Part shown: piece after piece, positions 10,751 through 59,300 of the stretch
How positions within the stretch are numbered: the stretch's first letter is position 1
Layout of the letters: the number at the start of each line of letters is the position of its first letter
NCBI RefSeq assembly: GCF_003704095.1
Contig: NW_020846086.1
Coordinates: forward strand, 124,001 to 188,000
Direction: 5' to 3'
Origin: Pocillopora damicornis
Lineage: Eukaryota
DNA length: 64,000 nucleotides
Made by a program: the position numbers and the translations under genes
The notes under the pieces: model-generated
Told to the model about the DNA's origin: nothing
The model's input: the letters and a program-made list of their open reading frames with translations, nothing else
Database searches by the model: none

Positions 10751-13700
10751 GGGGCATAAGATTATCATAGGGGATATTAGGACACTTGGTTTCATTCTGA
10801 TACTAACAATGATTCATTCAGTCTGTTCATCTGGGGTGATAGTGGTGCTAAAAATGACAGTTCATAATGACTAACATTTCAAAAAGCCTCCCAATACATC
10901 CATGAAAGTTATTCTTACTATATGCTAAACATTCCTCACAAGTTCATTCTGAGAATTTGGTGGTGGATCAAATGGTAATTCCATTCAAAAGTTTGAGAGT
11001 AATAAACAAAGAAAAGTTTACTGTACCCTCCAAAAGCACTTCACACTTTCCTTCCTAGTCTTGAATTTAAACTTGCATAGCTCACAACTCTGATGTCCAG
11101 ATTTTGAAACCCAGTTCAGTATACAACTCTGATGAGCATACTTTACAGTTCCAGTGCATTTGCATGGTCGTATGAGCTCTTCATCCTCACTGCCACCATG
11201 ACAAATGCGGCACATTAAACCACAGCTCTCCCGTAAATCTGTAAGTTTGCTGAGTGATGAAGAAATGCTAGGATCCCTAACACTTTTCTTAAAAGGCTTA
11301 ATTGTAACTCCAACACTTTCCAACACTGACACAGAACTACACTTTCGCACTATTTTGAAGTTCTGGTTTTTATCCCTTGGCAACAACTGAGACTCCTCAT
11401 TTGCACTGTTTGAACAGATTGAAGTCAACAGTTGCAAGCTTTGTGACTTGAATTTCATTTCACCCATTCGATCATCAAAGCTGTTCTCCTGAATCACTGG
11501 CCCCTGTTGTGAGCAGAAAAAGTAGAAATCTGTTGAACCTGGACCATTTCCTTTGTCCACCAAATAGTGTGGCTGGCAGGTATAACTTGGAGTTTGCTCA
11601 CAACCATTGTAAGATTCCTTTACTTCTGGTACTTCTGATACATCACACTCTGAGTCTGCTGACAGCAAAAGTGGCTCACTTGCCATACCAAGCTTTTTGC
11701 TGGAAAAGGAATTTGGCTGACTAACTTTACTGCCAGTAGTGTTGTCCTTCTTGTTCAAACTTGGCAAACTTTTGGAGAACAGCTAAAAATACAATTTAAA
11801 CAAAATTATTCATAAGAGACTACACAGAATTTTCAAACAACCAGATAAATATATATATACAATATTTACTTGTGTATAAGTCAACCTTTTATGACCAAAA
11901 ACTCAGCCCAAAAAAACACCCTTGACTTATACATGAGCCATACACACAGACCTGACCCAAGTAATTCAAGAAATTAGCATAACAATTGCATCAAGTCCAT
12001 TTGGAAAACTGAGGTTACAAAACCAGTTCCACCTATGTTCAAGTATGGTCAGTTTTCAGTGCATTCTTCATCAACTAAAAAAGTTTTAAATAATAAATTT
12101 CAAGTGGCTTAAATGCAAAGCTATTGGAGCTGATTTCAATTGTGTGTTCTGATCTGTAAAGCAAACATTTTTTCTTACAGCTTCAATGCTATTTACAGTG
12201 CTGAACTTTCATTTTCATCGAAGGATTTCAGTAGCTGAGTGACCTGGCTAATGCTGAGCTCTCATGTGGTCTTATTTGTTATGCGTGATCCTTTGAAGCT
12301 CTTTGGTGTTCCTTTGGTCTACTCAATCTCCTTTCAAACTCAACATTAAGATAAAGGTTAGTTAAATGTAAGAAGAGATCATTTTCAATGAAATTTACAA
12401 AATTTGGTTAAATACTTCTTTTAGCAAATCGAAGTGCTCGTATATGCTTAAATCATGGTGATATAAATACAAGTGCTAATAAATTTGCAGCACACAGTTA
12501 CAGTTTGCTCTCCAGTTTTTAATTTTTTAATTCCTCATGTTTTCAATACATTCTCAGAAATAAGAAATTAACTTTTTGGGGAATTTCTATTGGTCTGAAT
12601 TTTACCTCAGTCTTTAACTAGAAATGATGAAAAATCCAATTTTTGACCTTGAACCAACATGCAACAAAATAATGTCTCCCATCTGGAACTTGTTTTCAAG
12701 TATGGGACTCATCCATAGTTAGTAATGATAAGAATGCAAATTGCTCAGTCAAGTTATTGGGCAACTGTGTCTCCATTTCATTGACTGGGCCTGAGTTGAA
12801 TATACTTTGGTGAATGAAAAGGTAGCAAAGGGGGATCCTGATACTGTTTCACACACTTATTTTAAAAAAAATTACTGTGTCATGTATATAGAAGGGAAAA
12901 GTTCAAATCTCTCTTCTTGTGTGTTAAAAGTTTCAGAGAAATCTTGAGGATTCATTAAAAGAAAAACAATTTACAGGTTATGAGTAATGCACGAGGCAAA
13001 TCACATCTCATGCTTGCTCGTACATGTAAATTAAAAAATCATACTTGCCTTTCAGTAAAATTAATACTTCACAACACAATTTTGGCCCAGATCACATGTC
13101 ATAAATACACTCTTTGCCACTTTTGAATAAACTTCAGTGACTCAATTTATACTAGTATGTTTTTCCAACTCAAATATGATTTCCAATTGGGGAAACATGT
13201 CACATGCCATGAGTCACAACTCATGAACTTTTGACTTGCATGTGATCAGCTTGTCTACCTAAAACAACATCACATTGTGTGCTAAATGGCATTAAGGAAA
13301 TAATATTTTAGAAGGAGTGGCCATTTTTTAAGTTGGGAGGGATATCAACACACCTCAGGAAGGACTCTATGGGAAACAGTGAGTTCTTGTTTCCCTGAGA
13401 CACTAAGTGTCCCCCAAGGCAAACCTAGAGGAAAATTGAGGATCTGGAGGAAACAAAATTCACTGTTTCCTTTGGGGTCAGTCATCAAGAGCTAGATATG
13501 ACACAGTTTAGAATAAGATATGCATCATGTGAGGTATATTGTTGATATGACATCTGAAATGAGTCTAAATCAGGCTATGATTGTTATTTTTGTCTAAAAG
13601 TGTTTATTGACAATTTGGATGGAAATCAATGACCCAAAGCAATTCTTCAATATCCTGCTGGTCTCTGAGTGACAGTGCAGTACATTAGTTTACCCAATTT

Positions 13701-29719: not shown

Positions 29720-31760
29720 CTAGAGAACTCTTTGGCAAGCAGTTCCCATGGTTCGGTTACAAGAGATATCGTTCCAACGCTGTTCGCTAGATGGCGAGGA
29801 AAGACCGTACATGTGACCACATGGCTCAGAAGCATTTCCATTCGGCTCACCTGGAGCCCAATTCTTGTAAACTGGAACTGAATGGTCATACCAGTAGAAA
29901 TCATTCGCTGTTGAGTTCCACTTCAGCCCAATCCGAATATAGTTCACAGACGGAGCTTGCCTTGTTGCGAGGTCCCAGACGAACTTGTTCTCTTCGGCGC
30001 TGTTAATCTTCACCAGTTCCCCTTTAAGGCCGCGGCAGAACGTTTGAGCTTGGAGCCAAGTCATAGCAAAGTCATTGAATAAGTAACAGTTATTTTTGAA
30101 CAAATTCCATCCTGTTGGACAGACTAAAAACGATTTGAACATTTAGTAAAAATCAACAAGTTGGTAGGGAACGTCTTTTATACGTGAAAACCTGTAAATG
30201 TCTTAACATTTATGAAAAATAAATAGTTCCCTGTCTCCCCGAAGGCCAAAGAACCAATTCGTGACCGGCAGGAGGCTCNNNNNNNNNNNNNNNNNNNNNN
30301 NNNNNNNNNNNNNNNNNNNNNNNNNNNNNNNNNNNNNNNNNNNNNNNNNNNNNNNNNNNNNNNNNNNNNNNNNNNNNNAAAAAATTCATAAGGCTAAATT
30401 TGAGATAGAGGAAGTAAACAAAAAATTACAAATAGCGAGGAAACTTCCTCAGTAACCCCTATTTTTTCGGCTTTTAAATGATCGGGAGGACAAATTTCAC
30501 AAATTGTGGAAATTTTGAGAGATTTCACCGTAGCAAATTGAAGAAAATCAAAGGCAAAGCCAAACAGTATCGTTGATGAGCGTCGCCTAAAACAAACGAT
30601 GGTGCGAACCTGGCTCATCGCCTTTTTTATGGCTTTAAATGACCTTGAAAAGCAAAAACAAAACATATTCTAGAAAAAACATTACGCTGGCGCGCGCGCT
30701 AACATTGAGCAAAAACCTTTTTTTCTTGATTGAATAGCATTTTGAGTTGCGCCCACAGCTAGCAGGTTCCTCAAACGGAAATAAAAAAACTCCCTTTTTA
30801 AATAAAATAATTGAAATGAAAAGAGACCAAACTTAGGATAAATTGATAACTGTACTCACATTTTTCACAATGTTTCCCCTTGTAGCCTGAATGACATTGA
30901 CCTCTCTTTGTTTTTCCGCTGCGCCGGAGGGAGACATCAATGCACGAGATCTAGAGTCATAAATGAACGAGTCAAAAAACTGTTTCATAGGTAGACTATG
31001 CAATGATGTTTCGATAAGCTTTATCACGTATTTTTTCTTTACCGAAAATTCATCTCAGGCCCCTTGCAGTCTTTTCGATGCGATGCGCTCTTATCACTTT
31101 CTATTTGTTTCTGTTGATCTTTCAGTCACCTCAAAACTTCAAGAATTCGGTTTTCTTAATATCGTGGAATTCTTAAGTTCACATGCACTTTGCGTTTGGC
31201 GTTAGTTGAAGTAAGGGGTCAGCACTGGACTAACATAATTCCTATGGGCACTCCAGATCTAAGTTACTGACTCTAACAAGCTTTTGTTGTACTGACTTGA
31301 GGCCGAAATGTAAACAGGCAAACCAACCTGTAAGGAACCATAGTATATAGATCCTTTTTCCTGTTTGAAATCATTTGGTTTCAGCTGCCGTGAACTGTAG
31401 TTCATCTCACAGACGCGGTTTTTCGTTTTGTTTCCAGGTCGGATATTGAATGACTTGCAGTTCTTGTTATCACTTCCGAGGCATTGCAGGTGGCATTCAA
31501 AGTCGTGAGAAACATTAACGGTACGCAAGACATGTCCAGTTAAAACACGATCTAAAATGCAACGAGAAAGAACCGTCATTATTGAAAAATAATAGAAGAG
31601 AAACAAAATTGGAAATGATGTGTTTTAAATCATACTTACCAGCTTGAGTTTCAAATATGCTTCCGCAAAATTCTTTGTTTGCCTTCGAATATGCATTTAC
31701 CAGAAAACTTTGGAGAATCACAATGATGCCGTGGAACTTCTTTGGGGACAAAACAGCCAT
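29720..31760 (-). CDS. Secreted PAN/apple + reduced EGF-like + C-type lectin protein
   Basis: Exons 31760-31640 (signal-like), 31551-31328 (PAN: ECHLQC..CKSFN..CEMN), 30950-30860 (ISCIDV..GQCHSGYKGKHCEK) and 30123-29720 (CTLD: CPTGW..CY..WLQAQTFC..IGL..WAPGEPN..C..WNDISC). Splice phases 1, 0, 1 are compatible. Confidence 0.88.
30467..30714. repeat. Dispersed repeat, copy 2 (lectin gene intron)
   Basis: Same orientation and shared blocks as 23300-23592. Confidence 0.75.
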
Positions 31761-34095: not shown

Positions 34096-37000
34096 TAGCC
34101 TGCAGAGCAGAGCAGGCGTAATTTTGGCCAGCGAGTGCTAAGTAATTTCATAGCGAATATTATGGCCGCCATCTTTGATTTTAATGGCAGCCACNNNNNN
34201 NNNNNNNNNNNNNNNNNNNNNNNNNNNNNNNNNNNNNNNNNNNNNNNNNNNNNNNNNNNNNNNNNNNNNNNNNNNNNNNNNNNNNNNNNNNNNNNNNNNN
34301 NNNNNNNNNNNNNNNNNNNNNNNNNNNNNNNNNNNNNNNNNNNNNNNNNNNNNNNNNNNNNNNNNNNNNNNNNNNNNNNNNNNNNNNNNNNNNNNNNNNN
34401 NNNNNNNNNNNNNNNNNNNNNNNNNNNNNNNNNNNNNNNNNNNNNNNNNNNNNNNNNNNNNNNNNNNNNNNNNNNNNNNNNNNNNNNNNNNNNNNNNNNN
34501 NNNNNNNNNNNNNNNNNNNNNNNNNNNNNNNNNNNNNNNNNNNNNNNNNNNNNNNNNNNNNNNNNNNNNNNNNNNNNNNNNNNNNNNNNNNNNNNNNNNN
34601 NNNNNNNNNNNNNNNNNNNNNNNNNNNNNNNNNNNNNNNNNNNNNNNNNNNNNNNNNNNNNNNNNNNNNNNNNNNNNNNNNNNNNNNNNNNNNNNNNNNN
34701 NNNNNNNNNNNNNNNNNNNNNNNNNNNNNNNNNNNNNNNNNNNNNNNNNNNNNNNNNNNNNNNNNNNNNNNNNNNNNNNNNNNNNNNNNNNNNNNNNNNN
34801 NNNNNNNNNNNNNNNNNNNNNNNNNNNNNNNNNNNNNNNNNNGAGCCACGAACTACGGTGAATGATTTTCATTCCCATTCTGAATTTTCGGCGGTTGCAA
34901 CTTACGCGATCGCTAATAACACTACTTTAAGAGGATTTTAATCATAAACCGACAATACTCCCACCGAACAGAAGCCGAAAAAAAAAACTTCTCGAAAATA
35001 AAGACAAAGTAGTCGATATGGTTGCATGGTCAGTATTATCAGGCCTTTTTCTTGCTTAACTATTTGGAGCGGCGATTAACGCAAGGGAGGTAGTACGCGC
35101 ACTCAAAAGCGAAAAAATAAAACTGCGGACTAGATTCCCTCTAAAGGTTCGTACCTAAGAAAATAAATGCACAGGCAAGTTAATTTTTTCGGTCAGCAGA
35201 TCATGAGAACGCGTATCTTCGAGTGTCACACAGTATCGAGAGTTTTACGAGTGAAGTTTTGAGGCTTGTGTTAGAAGTTTTTATCAACGTGAACAAAATT
35301 ATCTGCGTACGGATCACCGTGGAAACACAATAGTTTCAATTATTCAACCTTGCAATTGTGATAACAATGTTTTTGCCAAATTTAAACTACACATTCTAAA
35401 TATGCCTGGTCGATAAGATTTCTGGTAGGACATTTTAACTTTGTATTCTGTTTCAATACTCTATCATGTGAAATCAGTTACATTTAACTAATTTTTATTG
35501 TGTCACCTTTTCATAATTTCAGTATTTGTAAAAGGAAGGAACATCCAATTGAAAGAGGACGTGTTGAGGCTTCAAACTCAACTTAAAAAGTGTCAAAAAA
35601 ATCTGACGTCTACTGAAAAAAAGGAAAAACAAGTCAGACACAAGCTAAGGGGGACAAGATCTGCTTCTTCAAAGCTAAAACAGAAATTACAGGGCAACAT
35701 TTGCTCATGGTCACAATGGACACAACCAAAGGACCTTGATGTTTATGGCTTGTGTCAGATACATGCAACATGCATCTTTGTTATCATATCAAAAGACACC
35801 TGTAGCATTACATCTGATTTTTTGTTCAATTGTAACCCCCAACAAACTTCATTGTCTCTCCAACTACACTTTCTGACTGGAATGTTCTTTTGGGTGAAGC
35901 TGACAAACTAATTTTACGCAAGCGCTTTTCAAATTCCAAGTATGATTTTCATCTCTGGAGTGATGACTCCCACAAAGGAGGAGAGGAGAGGCACGTAGTG
36001 GGTGTTCACACCTGGTGTCCCTTAGAGAGCAAGCCACGAGCTTATGTCTTTGCAAACAGCCTAACAGCAAGCAGGTCTGGAAAACACCAGTCTGATGTAG
36101 ATTACCATGTTGTAAAAAATGAATATGATATTACCAATGTTTCAGGGTTGGTTGGGGACGATGCCTCTACCCAAAAGGGAAAAGTAAATGGTCTTTTAGC
36201 TAACAATGCCAGAATTTTTGGAAAAGAGATGTTTTTTGTAGGATGCTACCCACATGTACTAAACATTATGCTGAGAAGAATGTGCCAGGCTGGGTTTGGG
36301 GCCAAGGGTGACATGAGCAACCCCCATGTCTTACAATTACTCTATAAAATATCTTGGCTCCATCATGAGCGTCCAAGCCAATGCAAAGTTATGTATGTTT
36401 CTCTTGGTATTCTAAGTAAAGAGCCACCCCTTCCCCAGACATTCATAGACACAAGGTGGACATATTATCATGAAACTCTCCAGTGGTATCTTAAGTATGG
36501 AAAAGCTTGTTTACAGCTTGCTGAGTGTCTCCTTGAAAGATTGCCAAAATCAGATTGCCACCAGACTATTTGGCAAGATGTCATTAAGCTGAGCTCCAGT
36601 CTTATGATTCAAGTTGAAATCAAGTCTTTGTTTGAATTCCTCGATAAGTTTATCATCCCATCTCTGAATACATCCCAAGCTAGTGATGCAGAACTTGGAT
36701 TCTCCAGTGGTTACCTAGCAAGGTTATGGCCAGCAACTGTTCTGAAGCACCATGAAACTTTAAGTAAAATGTTGATGTCTCCTGCAGAATATTTTCCTTT
36801 AACATCACAACAGGTGAAGATGTCATTGAAGGACCCAGCAGCTATCAACCACTTTCACAAACAAGTGCAGAGGCCAATGTTACAAGAAGCAATCAAAGTA
36901 ATCAAAGATCATGGAGCAGAGTGGTTAACTTTTCCCAAGTTGTTTGGAATGGGAGCTGATCAGAGATACCAAAGTCCTTTCTGGTATTCAGTTTTAAAGC

Positions 37001-38563
37001 TTCTTGAAATTCCAGTCAGATCTGAGAATCAACAAGAAAAGTCAGTGAACAATCTCTTTCATGTACATGGACAGAACATTCTAACATTGCTGTCTAAGGA
37101 TAGAGTTGGATTGATTAAATGGGCCACTCTTTGGAAATTGGTGGAACCACAATTGCTCAGTGAGATCAAAGAAATTGCTTCATCACCACACAGCTCCCTC
37201 ATAAGTAAAGAAGCCACTCCAAACCTGTTTGAGTTCTATGCCAAGCACATTTTCAGTCTTCCAGTTAGCAATGTTCTTGCTGAAAGACAGTTCATTCTTT
37301 CTCAACTGTATCTTAATAACATGTCAGAGTTGTCAAAACAGGCCTCAATCATACTTATTGAAAATATTCTGCATAGTGGAAAAACCAACACCAGGACCAC
37401 AGAAGCAGCGCGTGAAGTTCACGAAGAAAGAATGAAAGATTAAACCCAAATGCTCACCACAGACGTTTTGCAAGAGGCAAGAAAGAACCTAAACAAGATT
37501 AGANNNNNNNNNNNNNNNNNNNNNNNNNNNNNNNNNNNNNNNNNNNNNNNNNNNNNNNNNNNNNNNNNNNNNNNNNNNNNNNNNNNNNNNNNNNNNNNNN
37601 NNNCAATCCTCTACATTCAAAGTGCCCAAAAGAAATGAGCATTAATTTGACAATCGACACCAGTCAAACATCATCTCCGTAATCCGTAGTAAGTACCAAC
37701 GAGTACCCGAGAAGTGATTGATAAATTGTTCTTGGTTCCTGTTGACGATTAAACCGGAGTTCACTCTCAATCTCGAGTGAGCGATATTGAAATTAGGCTA
37801 ATTGACCCTTTATCACCAACACACCCAAGATAGGGGTCAAGATAACTTAATTTATATTCTTACCTCGTTCATTGTGCGCTTGCTGTACTTTCGAGCTGCT
37901 CTGAGTACATTTCATCAATCGATATATTTCACTCCTCCATGGTATCTTGAGCGCGCGTCAAAAAAATGTGAATAACTTTCAAACGAACAACGATGGACTC
38001 CAAGACTCAGTTTGCCTTGAAAACACGATGCCCACTCCTAAACTTGTCCGTTTTGAAATTCCAAATAATAAACACCACGCGCAATGAACGACAAAACAGT
38101 ACGAAAAATTAGAATTTCTACCACTTAGTCGATGAAAAGGAAAAAAATAAAACGGTAGAATCTTCAAATTCGTCGCAGTCTTCCCGGTTTATGTGTTAAA
38201 CTACCTGAGATTTCGTGTTTTGACAAGATATTCAACGGTAAAGTTTCAAAAGATTTAAGGAGAGAAGTAAACACAGGAGAGGGCCTATTCTGCGCCTGTC
38301 TGAAATTTTCCTTAACTCACGTGCATACGCTGTTCCGTGAGGCCTTTAAGGCTGGGGAGAGAAAAAATCTCTACCAAGAGGGCTGTCGACGGTCAAAAAT
38401 AAGGAGAGGGGTGGGGGTAGGGGAGTGAAGATTACTTTCTCCCCTCCCCCGCCCCCCACCCCCACCGTTCACTCTAACTGCAAATCAGAAATGACCGGTT
38501 GAATAAACGATCGCGAGCTTTTAGCGTTAGCTTGCACTAACAAGATGCCTGCACTGCAGGCTA
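34096..38563. mobile_element. Segment bounded by TAGCCTGCAG...CTGCAGGCTA inverted termini enclosing the transposase remnant
   Basis: Left end tagcctgcagagcag(agcag)gcgt at 34096; right end atgcctgcactgcaggcta ending at 38563. No clean target-site duplication and two N gaps inside. Confidence 0.5.
35498..37503 (+). pseudogene. Decayed hAT-like DDE transposase
   Basis: 517-aa ORF 35890-37443 with acidic motifs WSDDSH and VGDDASTQ, CxxH (CYPHVLN), DTRW and LPVSNVLAERQF (hAT C-terminal PxS..ERxF). The upstream coiled-coil segment (35498-35911) is in another frame. TAA at 37441-37443 is followed by in-frame coding-like sequence running into an N gap. Confidence 0.7.
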
Positions 38564-38999
38564 GACTATCACAGGTAACCCAAATTAATTCACAGTATGC
38601 AAGTGTATGTCAGGAGCCCATTCTCCTGTGCATGTGTATATATACATAAAAACGTAACGACTGATGGATTTTGAATCGGAATTTCAAAAATGTTAAAAGT
38701 TTATTCATATGATAACGACTTGGATTTACTAAAGAGAGAAGTTAACTTCTCTGATTATGTTTTCTGGTAATTTGGGTTACTTTTGTGATCCTATCGTTCC
38801 AAAAACTTATCTTCCCATACAGTGAAAAGGAGAATACATAACCAATGTAAAAGCACTTGATTTGAGAAATTTCCTCAGAAACTTAAAATATCTAATAAAT
38901 CCCATAAATCTCGAGGTTACGTAATACCCTTACTCCAACACAGGTGTCTAAACTTGTGAAACATCAAGCGTCCTCTTGTACATCCTTAGTCCAAAGTAC

Positions 39000-39145
39000 A
39001 TAATCGCCTCACATGTTAATCACTGCCTCATTCATTCTTCGCACGTGAACAGATAAAATTGACCAATCAGAAATGTGGAAATAGCTTTTCATTGAACTAC
39101 GTCACCCCTAGGGATCAAAACAAACGTGGAGTAAATACATAGTAG
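39000..39145 (+). promoter_or_regulatory. Proximal promoter of the intronless gene
   Basis: CACATG 39010-39015, CACGTG 39042-39047, CCAAT 39063-39067 and CRE-like TACGTCA 39098-39104, all within about 220 bp of the ATG. Confidence 0.5.
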
Positions 39146-39227
39146 TCGCGTGTTCGGACTTTGGTATCCTAGTGAGCGGGTTGAGAATTTGTACGTGAGC
39201 GCTATTTGGAGGGAAAATCAATTTGTA

Positions 39228-40196
39228 ATGGATAATCTGTTGGACGATGTGGTACAGGAGGATACCTACAAGATCCACAACGATTTCTTCAATTTTTTGG
39301 ATTTAACAAACCGACCGAACATACCGCTTATCGAGGAATACTTTAGCCACCCTAAGGCGCGTCGCGTGCGTGAAAGTAAAACTATCTTGAGTCCAAGTTT
39401 GTCTGAATTTAATAAAGGCATCAGGAACGGTCGATATTTATCAAGTGAATATCACAATGAAAGAAGAATACAGAATGCTTTATGGAGAGATTGGTGGCGT
39501 CAAACTCGTGCTCCCTTCCACGCTATTGTGAAAGAAATCCCGAAGGGCGAGGACATCATTGATATACGAGGCAAAGATATTGGCGATTTTCCGACTGAAT
39601 ATACTATTTCAGCGTTAAGACCTCATGAAATTCCTGTGGTAGGAACATACGTTCATAAGGACATAATTCCTGGATTCGCTTATAGAGTTCGCCGAAACGG
39701 AACAAGCGATTACTTGTTCGACGGCAAGGCACTAGTATTACGAACCATCGGAAAAGGTTATGGTAAAAGACTGACCTTTCACAGTGATGCTGTTGAAAAC
39801 GATAATTTCTTCTGGTCGGACAGTAACCCAGATGAAGGCTTTGCCTTCTCAATCCAGGTAATTTTTGAAGGTGATAAATTCGACGTTTTGGATTGCCACC
39901 GCCGAAGAGTGGCAGAAACTCAGTTGATCACCGTTGGTGATAAACAAGAAATCAAGGAAGTTTCGCTTCGAAAACGCGAGATTAACATGTTCATTTCGGT
40001 GAAAATGAAATGTTCTCTCAAATTTGCATCGCTTGACCATGTGCCGGAACATCTCCGTGGTCAAGTGGTCGATCTACTAACCTCTGGACGCGCCTTAAGC
40101 CAGAAAACCTTGTCCGGCTGGAAAGCAAAAACGGTGGAAATTAGAAATGTGCACATTCCTGATTTGGGGTCTTGTTGCTTTCGTTCTTCCGCTTAA
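39228..40196 (+). CDS. Intronless uncharacterised protein (about 322 aa)
   Basis: Uninterrupted ORF of about 1 kb, first ATG at 39228 (MDNLLDD). Globular-looking composition, promoter motifs directly upstream, AT-rich downstream region with AATAAA at 41201. Confidence 0.85.
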   Translation: MDNLLDDVVQEDTYKIHNDFFNFLDLTNRPNIPLIEEYFSHPKARRVRESKTILSPSLSEFNKGIRNGRYLSSEYHNERRIQNALWRDWWRQTRAPFHAIVKEIPKGEDIIDIRGKDIGDFPTEYTISALRPHEIPVVGTYVHKDIIPGFAYRVRRNGTSDYLFDGKALVLRTIGKGYGKRLTFHSDAVENDNFFWSDSNPDEGFAFSIQVIFEGDKFDVLDCHRRRVAETQLITVGDKQEIKEVSLRKREINMFISVKMKCSLKFASLDHVPEHLRGQVVDLLTSGRALSQKTLSGWKAKTVEIRNVHIPDLGSCCFRSSA

Positions 40197-56322: not shown

Positions 56323-59300
56323 ATGAGACCTGCAACATATGCAGTGCTGCTGTTTCTTGTGGCAGCAGTGTCTGGTGTAAGAGGAATAAACAGCACAGTA
56401 AGCCAAGGTGTAGGAAACAGTAGCTTACAAACCAACCTTAGTACCACGGTGATGCCGATAACACAGGTCTCTACAGATCTGCCAGTCAATGCTACTGATA
56501 CTACTCCAGGGATAAAGAAGGGAAAATGCTATGACTTTGATGTGTTTGTCCTGAATAACCAACTCAACATACCTTACACTGTCACATGCTGTATTGCTGT
56601 CCTCTGTGGATTTTATCTGATTTTATTTGGTGAGATAATCTTCAAACCTTATATTATGTTAGTATTGTAAGGATAGGAATAATGATCTATAGTTGATGAA
56701 TGGTTTTAAGTACAAAGATAACTGTACAAAAGTTTTGCATTTAATGGAATGATTTTTCACCATCATGGAAGTCTGGAGATAGAAAAATTTTGAGATGGAT
56801 AAAGATGATAACAATTGCATATTTCTAATGTAATTTCCCACTTAATGAGGAATATGCAGAGGAAAAATGATGCAAGAAATTTTACTACGCAAATCTAAGC
56901 TATACAGAGGAACTATCAACAAAAATGTGACTTGGTAAGATTGCTCCCCCAAATAAATTTCCGTAAAGGCCAGTGAGCCTTAGTGTTGAGAACATGATCT
57001 CTTAACCCTTTAACTCTTAGTAATGATTGACTAGCAACTTCTCCCTATGTTATCCATACATTGTCCACTAAACAGGTAATGAGAATACTCAAACTTAACA
57101 GGTAGAAGTTTTAATTTTGATCTGACATAAAATTGTCATGACCAACTTACAAGGAAGTGTGTAGCAGCTAGAGAGGAGAATAAACAATCAGATTTGGGAG
57201 TTAAAGGTTAAAGAATGTAATATAAATAGTATTTTATATAATCACTAAGAAAATTGGTGAGTAAGAATGAGGGAGTTTACCCTACCCAGCATTTCAGTCA
57301 AACAAAATACAGTGAACTTACATTACATCATAAAATATTATTCAAGGTCATTTGGACTATTTGTAATTTGGCATTTTCTTCATTGGCAGGTTACAGATTC
57401 TTCAAGTGCAGCCTTTTCCTCTTGGGATTCCTACATGCCACCTTTGTCACTTACGTCATCTCTATAAACCATGCTGACCTGCCTATGTGGGGTATTGTTG
57501 CCGTCAGTGCAGCTGTTGGAGTATTCTGTGGTCTTTTGACAATGTTCTGCTCATACTGTGGTCTATTCCTGGCAGGATTAGGTCTTGGATTTTTCATTGG
57601 TGTAGCCATATTTTTTGTCATCTCAACATTTTACCATGTGACTCTTGTGTGGATACCATTTGGGGTTCTCCTTGGCTTAAGTTTGATCTTCAGTTTATTG
57701 ACATTAAGATGGCAGAAAGGATTCTTCATTGTGGCAACGTCTCTCATTGGTGCTGCACTGATAACAGGTGGTGTGGACTATTTCACTGAAGAGTTTGTGC
57801 TTCTCAATTACACCCGACAGCACATCATGGCAGGTGATGTCCAGGTGGAGTGTTGGGTGACGTGGATCATCCTAGCAATATGGCCTGTCATGTTCATCCT
57901 TGGAAATGTGGTGCAGTTCTGTAAAACAGGAAGAAGTTTTAGTCACAAGAAAAGTGAGTTTAAAGTCATTACAACAAATTACTTTTTGATGGAAACAAAT
58001 AAGGATTTGCTTAGCAAAAATCCCTCAGTTACCCGTGATCTAATATCAAATTTCCCCTTTGATTCACATGCATTTGGAAGGCAAATTAATAGAAGAATCT
58101 ATCAGTCATTCAAAAGTGGCTTAAAAGTTGGGCTCTTAATCAGTGTTGAAGACACAGTTGACGTAAAACAATAGAGGACAAAAATACCAATTGAGAGAAC
58201 AATAAGTTTATGAGCTGGTTTTTTATTATTATATATGATTTTCATATATCTACTATCATTATTCATCAGCTTGTGATCTGTTGACTTGAACTAATTGACA
58301 TGTCTTTTTCCTTTCAATGTATCAATAGAAATATCTTTGTCAAAATTTTTTGATTTTTTAATAAGAAGTTTTTGTTATTCATTTTGTAGGATCAGACTCT
58401 GTCTCTCTCCAAGGTGAAGATAAAGCCATGAAGAGATACCGCAGCCTCAACATGAATGGCGATGTTGTTGCTAAGGTTAGTGAACAATAATTATCTCTTT
58501 GAAATACCAGTTATACATTAGATATTCTTGTAACATTGCTTAACCCTTTAACTCCCAGAAGTGATTAACATAAAACTTCTCCCTACAATATCCATAAATT
58601 CTTTACCCAACAGGTAATGAGAATATTCAAACTTATCAGGTAGAAGCTGCTATCTTGATCTAGCACCAATTTCTCATAACTAATTTACAAGGAAATGTGT
58701 AGCAGCTACAGGGGAGAATTAACAATCAGATCTTGGGAGTTAAAGGGTTAATACATGTGTAATCACAACAGACAGTTAAAATAATGTTTTAGCTCCACTC
58801 AATTTCAACTCTGCTGTTGATTCACCACAATTCTATCTTCAAACTGCAATTTTGATATTCTCTAGAGGGAGCCTATTATGTAAAAGCCTTGTAGTGTCTC
58901 ATGGGCTTTCATGTTGCTATCTTCAGTCTTAATTTGCTTTTTCACAATCGCAATTTGATAGTTAAATTTATCATGAAATCAACAAAATAATATTCAAAAA
59001 TAAATTGAGGGGTTTACAGCTAATTGGATGGGGGTGTGAGAATAACAATCACACATATAATGCTTTGACTTCTTTTGTAATGATTGAAAATGATTGAAAA
59101 TTCCTGCTTGACCACTACTGCAGGAAATTAACTAAAGAATTATACTACAGGTGCACTGTCTTTTACAAGAAAATATGAACTTAAGATAGTGCCTTAAGGC
59201 ACCCACTAATTCTTGTAAGAGCACAGCTTCGACAACTATGAAACGCATAGCTTGTTAGGTTGTAGAAAAATTGTGGGTTTAGAAGCTCTCTACCTTTTTT

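Follow-up and report, generated by a model that had tools for sequence, protein, structure and literature searches.

A ChREBP-like helix ahead of two predicted beta-barrels in an undescribed animal protein family: a locus of the coral Pocillopora damicornis

Background

The described systems closest to the locus presented here are the MCRIII (alpha2) helix of ChREBP and MondoA (PDB 4GNT, 5F74, 6YGJ and 9GCP), which carries the pattern RxxNxxWRxW, and the proteins of Pfam family PF08550 (GATA_AreA), which we take to be one family with fungal DUF1752 and of which yeast Reg1 is an example. According to PMC3323566, the Mondo invariants of this helix are R121, L122, N123, N124, W127 and R128, and 14-3-3 binding is abolished by R128A and W130A and not by N123A; ChREBP carrying N123A or I126A is inactive, yet still binds 14-3-3. 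PMC7414219 describes W127 and R128 as lining a phosphate/AMP pocket shared with 14-3-3, and I120 as a hydrophobic contact. For Reg1, a preprint (bioRxiv 10.1101/2025.06.23.660305) reports that five missense mutants tested all kept 14-3-3 binding, that alleles losing 2-deoxyglucose sensing retain it, and that W165, a residue needed for this sensing that lies 8 residues before DUF1752 (173-204), blocks induced recruitment to AMPK when changed in W165G. Because such mutants keep 14-3-3 binding, a module of this type can matter for other partners.

Here we describe a gene of P. damicornis that lies in a window of 64,000 nucleotides (contig NW_020846086.1, positions 124,001 to 188,000, forward strand), to which all coordinates refer. 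The original prediction, made from the letters of the DNA, was of an intronless orphan with a Mondo-like regulatory helix fused to an unrecognised domain.

Results

Gene structure and transcription

The open reading frame (Table 1) contains the sequence stretches quoted in the original prediction. Pfam and NCBIfam scans of the 322-aa protein gave zero matches. The predicted absence of a bHLH-ZIP agrees with the translation and the Pfam scan; a DCD is likewise absent (no Pfam family; C-terminal part predicted all-beta), and the protein as a whole matches no characterised family, as had been anticipated. Contigs span the reading frame without a joint in all four RNA runs, which come from at most four studies, as a single contig in X1, X5 and X7 and as overlapping contigs in X9. 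Their 5' ends fall at 39134-39175 (three runs) and their 3' ends at 40970-41154. At 41.8-42.5 kb three RNA runs show no coverage, whereas a DNA-like run carries on through the interval; this speaks against carry-over of DNA. The gene is thus intronless in its coding part, as predicted, and not in its 5'-UTR, where an intron seen in X1 only connects an upstream high-copy repeat with the gene. Three protein queries of the P. damicornis genome found no paralog beyond this locus, a search that spliced or distant copies could escape.

The exon spliced to the gene in that one RNA run is a very high-copy short repeat at 38345-38563. CACGTG, CCAAT and TACGTCA elements, listed without a chance control, stand at 39042-39104, just 5' of the RNA contig starts; the E-box upstream of the gene is single and not a tandem ChoRE. 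Elsewhere in the window, a 535-aa open frame at 35836-37443 (+), with no NCBIfam match and no Pfam match over its last 404 aa, is likely a transposon: the stretch around it is multi-copy, with a DNA depth of 435-1550 vs 185, and related copies occur in the RNA runs. The minus-strand intervals 45373-45831, 31259-31624, 29720-30142 and 43882-44520 hold a PAN-domain exon (Pfam E 2.2e-8) and nearby, by eye, a second PAN-like, a C-type-lectin-like and a Cys-rich exon. Exons at 11018-11782 (-), 50091-50690 (+) and 57242-58174 (+) look like those of a RING ligase of the MARCH type, a phosphatase akin to PHOSPHO1/2 and a membrane protein akin to TMEM198.

Table 1. Features of the gene in window coordinates
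Feature	Position	Strand	Basis or remark
Coding sequence, 322 aa	39228..40196	+	intron-free inside; one genomic copy found
RNA contig span	39134..41154	+ (taken from the reading frame; contigs strandless)	RNA contigs
GT..AG 5'-UTR intron	38575..38943	+	one run only (X1 joint 38569-38939, cut +5)
N-box, residues 16-35	39273..39332	+	conserved in anthozoans, eroded in the lineage of this coral; short helix predicted
ChREBP-alpha2/DUF1752-like helix, residues 78-91	39459..39500	+	profile, motif and alignment matches
Conserved core (small beta-barrel by prediction), residues 113-212	39564..39863	+	conservation, fold prediction
Second predicted barrel, residues 213-320	39864..40187	+	SH3/Tudor-like with long hairpins

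Family distribution

Far from being the orphan that was predicted, the gene has homologs across many animal phyla. A first search returned 42, with full-length ones including Acropora, Nematostella and Actinostola, and a profile search yielded 271 representatives after clustering at 50% identity, of which 150 are listed. The C-terminal domain, which defines the family, is found in cnidarians, amphioxus, hemichordates, annelids, brachiopods, molluscs, flatworms, priapulids, arthropods and a unicellular holozoan, and is doubled in insects, krill and a springtail. Among 19 representatives looked up were Branchiostoma, Ptychodera, Owenia, Capitella, Lingula, Nucella, Priapulus, Gordionus and Macrostomum, as well as another Nematostella gene and Chromosphaera, a unicellular holozoan; no vertebrate occurred among the named matches. 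Since the same architecture is present in amphioxus, hemichordate and annelid, the special link to symbiosis that had been suggested is unsupported. A tree built by a quick search only, with 78 domain rows drawn from 68 selected proteins and with weak deep branches, places the gene inside a group with all named cnidarian rows (SH-aLRT 99).

Records of the family are named "uncharacterized" or "hypothetical", save for two automatic labels that lack Pfam support. No literature was found for six gene identifiers, and among the titles listed none connects ChREBP with DUF1752 or describes this protein family. The ESM Atlas gave no usable match for the coral protein or a beetle-type relative. The family is undescribed and widespread, is without a Pfam model, and combines a regulatory helix of known type with a new body.

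No longer, fused relatives appeared among 1905 candidates, which is a weak test. One 844-aa record (P0291) has the domain fused to F5/8 domains and may be a gene-model join. Members of the gene's 90% cluster are 322 or 327 aa long through a linker indel at 39555-39565, and the linker there is about 10 residues longer in more distant corals. A possible presence of the domain in a product of the Drosophila Limpet locus that lacks LIM (Limpet/Prickle PET-LIM proteins) was not confirmed: no match carried that name, and Pfam found no domain, PET and LIM included, in the 120 listed insect relatives or in the other relatives scanned. A transcript class without PET and without LIM is described in PMC6337844.

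The C-terminal domain

AlphaFold models the C-terminal part confidently as all-beta, and the conserved core folded alone reaches a pLDDT of 93.7. Near-invariant in this core are G149, Y152, R155, G177, Y178, R181, F184, D198 and G204. When compared with 48,161 chains using VIA-align, both halves returned mostly small beta-barrels (SH3, Tudor, Sm/Hfq, KOW), with scores within background. The best match was the UvrD/PcrA Tudor domain (Z 5.2, rmsd 1.9, 53 aligned); the conserved core matched CgeA (Z 4.6, rmsd 2.9, 64 aligned) and then RimP, LSm and Hfq, none of them above Z 4.6. Foldseek against PDB and viral libraries gave no match with E below 0.001, a null result that does not establish a new fold, and PDB searches by single sequence and by a 131-row core alignment found no sequence match. 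Relative to described small barrels, the coral domain has no match above background and no sequence match to a solved structure. Based on these models, it is predicted to consist of two barrels of the SH3/Sm/Tudor type with no close solved relative. The near-invariant Gly, aromatic and basic residues suggest a binding surface, and the role of the barrels is probably one of binding and non-enzymatic; they could also be an enzyme.

The N-terminal helix

All 30 aligned anthozoan-type homologs share R80, Q82, W86, R87, W89 and W90, and 27 of them have N83. Mean column conservation is 0.90 over residues 78-91 vs 0.53 and 0.75 in the flanks, and as judged from the alignment the helix is under selection. 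Anthozoans keep the motif RxxNxx[WF]RxW, and in amphioxus, Ptychodera, Owenia and Lingula it stands ahead of the same domain; the original prediction required an R..NA.WR.W motif to be kept among orthologs, and the helix is conserved among them across phyla. Of 381 proteins compared, 87 carry the motif, near-duplicates being frequent. Its strict form is found in 12 of 150 listed representatives, many of which are fragments, and would therefore be dispensable in many lineages. By chance, 3 of 76,200 shuffled proteins contained the motif (3.9e-5 per protein), so that about one chance match is expected per 25,000-protein proteome. It marks 17 of the 78 tree rows, scattered across several branches, and the simplest reading, with deep branches weak, is that the helix was present in the cnidarian-bilaterian ancestor and was then lost many times. 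Insects and molluscs have different or degenerate N-terminal helices; an insect N-terminal pattern occurs in 53 of 119, a count that lacks a chance control and is given no weight here. In Chromosphaera (P0277, residues 159-417), the anthozoan profile reaches the helix region with WW in register and R, N and R absent, possibly a degenerate helix outside animals. AlphaFold places a helix at 73-94 (pLDDT about 47-54) within a low-confidence N-terminal part.

The region around the helix has fared differently in this coral. The N-box has a column conservation of 0.83 (residues 18-35). Compared with 19 close relatives, the coral protein is divergent at 17 of the 62 N-terminal columns that are conserved, five of them one deletion, vs 1 of 13 helix columns and 6 of 120 domain columns; N-terminal departures number 0-5 in 18 of the other 19 rows and 23 in one. 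In the coral protein D88 stands where 27 of 30 rows have V or A. In this lineage the helix has been retained and the region around it has eroded. The anthozoan N-box gave no profile alignment to the bilaterian W box described below or to Mondo.

Residue for residue, R80, N83, W86, R87 and W89 correspond to ChREBP R121, N124, W127, R128 and W130. Of the MCRIII invariants, four are identical, L122 is conservatively L or I, and N123 is replaced, by Q in 30 of 30 anthozoan-type rows and by Q, E or A across the family. All 30 rows have the equivalents of W127, R128 and W130, which ChREBP needs for 14-3-3 contact; in amphioxus W127 is replaced by F. At the I120 position every one of the 30 rows has R or K, the coral protein R.

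A profile of 30 anthozoan sequences searched against 177,635 PDB sequences gave four matches at E up to 10, the top three being ChREBP (E 0.39-0.68). A second profile of seven sequences without anthozoan rows (three from amphioxus, one each from Ptychodera and Owenia, and two others) again ranked ChREBP as the top three in the same set (E 0.98-1.9). All of these matches are below significance and cover the helix only. PF08550 was the family matched by most members, at the helix in 14 of 30 homologs (best E 0.045, below significance); against its curated cut-off of 20.9 bits, the homolog matches, reported here by E-value, are weak. The coral protein itself had no PF08550 match, and the top PF08550 match in the genome had no clear motif. 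The predicted resemblance to ChREBP alpha2 and to DUF1752 is thus upheld by profile ranks and residues, and a significant Mondo match was not found (best E 0.39 in PDB and 0.045 in Pfam), an outcome that the original prediction had named among those counting against it. With E-values of this size and about one chance match per proteome, the case for ChREBP rests on the identity of the kept positions.

The wider likeness to Mondo that had been proposed does not extend beyond the helix. Regions II-III are not matched as a whole, the 196-aa ChREBP chain aligning only at 116-140, and the proposed link through ILSPSLSEF is not conserved (S55 and P56 kept in 16 of 30 and fewer than 14 of 30 rows). 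The P104/W106/F109 group at Mondo spacing and MCRI, II, IV and V are absent from the coral protein, which instead has an unrelated barrel domain fused to the helix. The PF08550 proteins differ too, in that the coral family is animal and not fungal and the host protein is another. In ten bilaterian-type proteins, a WxxW/Y/LxxL/Y box stands 21-33 residues before the helix, as a pattern match at which the profiles stop short; coral Mondo has WKNF at 15 residues. This box recalls Mondo W106/F109 and Reg1 W165, and these tryptophans may be equivalent.

The genome's own Mondo gene (loci L003, L010 and L011; G000:C1472, about 494-507 kb, minus strand) was identified from exons with the helix and conserved flanking N-terminal regions; its bHLH exon was not located. 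On coral Mondo the family profiles align to the helix only, with scores of 12-14 bits; the set searched was not a blind one. The gene described here is not a Mondo family member.

Discussion

Starting from the observed gene, its expression, the family range, the helix conservation and the residue match to ChREBP, we propose tentatively, at somewhat short of an even chance, that the helix docks in 14-3-3 by way of a bridging phosphometabolite and governs how accessible a binding module is. The helix would dock in the 14-3-3 groove without phosphorylation, like that of ChREBP, and a metabolite carrying a phosphate is predicted to link the two. Docking would thereby tune the availability of the two predicted beta-barrels, which likely bind a protein or RNA partner, and the protein would act after transcription, a placement suggested by its lack of a DNA-binding domain. 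Docking in 14-3-3 is supported by the positions kept in the family, which match the ChREBP residues needed for 14-3-3, and by the variation at N123, where N123A is harmless to binding. Further support comes from the place of W127 and R128 at the phosphate/AMP pocket, the ranking of ChREBP by both profiles, the PF08550 matches and the retention of the helix in this lineage. Weighing against docking are the E-values below significance, the chance match expected per proteome, the lack of a Pfam match in the coral protein, the rarity of the strict motif among the representatives, R or K at the I120 position, the coral D88, the F of amphioxus and the Reg1 mutants that keep 14-3-3 binding; for a ligand of the barrels, the fold matches reach Z 5.2 at best. 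The genome encodes 14-3-3 genes with visible basic pocket residues. Two 14-3-3 genes are adjacent and intronless (L012 and L013, G000:C2648), and further copies, spliced or broken, lie on C2811 and C2929.

Another reading retains the same old Mondo/DUF1752-type module and gives it another partner, a phosphatase or kinase as in Reg1, or makes it an internal lid on the barrels; we consider this possible, if on the unlikely side. Another partner would fit the PF08550 matches, the Reg1 alleles and W165G, the ChREBP N123A and I126A proteins and the bilaterian upstream box. However, the best-kept residues are those ChREBP needs for 14-3-3, and the profiles do not reach over the box. The lid is at odds with the AlphaFold model, in which the low-pLDDT helix has no confident packing on the barrels. 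It is doubtful, and to us distinctly less probable, that the helix is a family-specific Trp/Arg amphipathic one, serving membrane, RNA or self-association, whose likeness to ChREBP arose by chance. The E-values would allow it, designed armadillo repeats score equal to ChREBP against a 24-aa peptide, and insects and molluscs have other or degenerate helices; but the cross-phylum invariants fall on Mondo invariants, and two profiles built from different sequences both rank ChREBP first. The intronless coding part and common helix could also recall a truncated or retrocopied Mondo/ChREBP, an origin that is highly improbable and already contradicted by the presence of a separate Mondo gene that has the conserved regions upstream and downstream, the lack of a bHLH, and a C-terminal domain that is unrelated to Mondo and present in a unicellular holozoan.

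Conclusions

Beyond the proposed 14-3-3 docking, we offer as a speculation, which we think unlikely in its full form, that the helices of ChREBP/Mondo, fungal DUF1752 proteins (Reg1) and the coral family are one ancient phosphometabolite-gated 14-3-3 docking module. The coral family would then be a third, non-transcriptional arm sensing sugar phosphate or AMP, one that predates the cnidarian-bilaterian split and acts via a tandem beta-barrel of undescribed function. If the helix has been kept since the cnidarian-bilaterian ancestor in a second animal family, its docking mode would be a reusable module, and the family would offer a small, soluble test protein for how the helix senses sugar phosphates or AMP.
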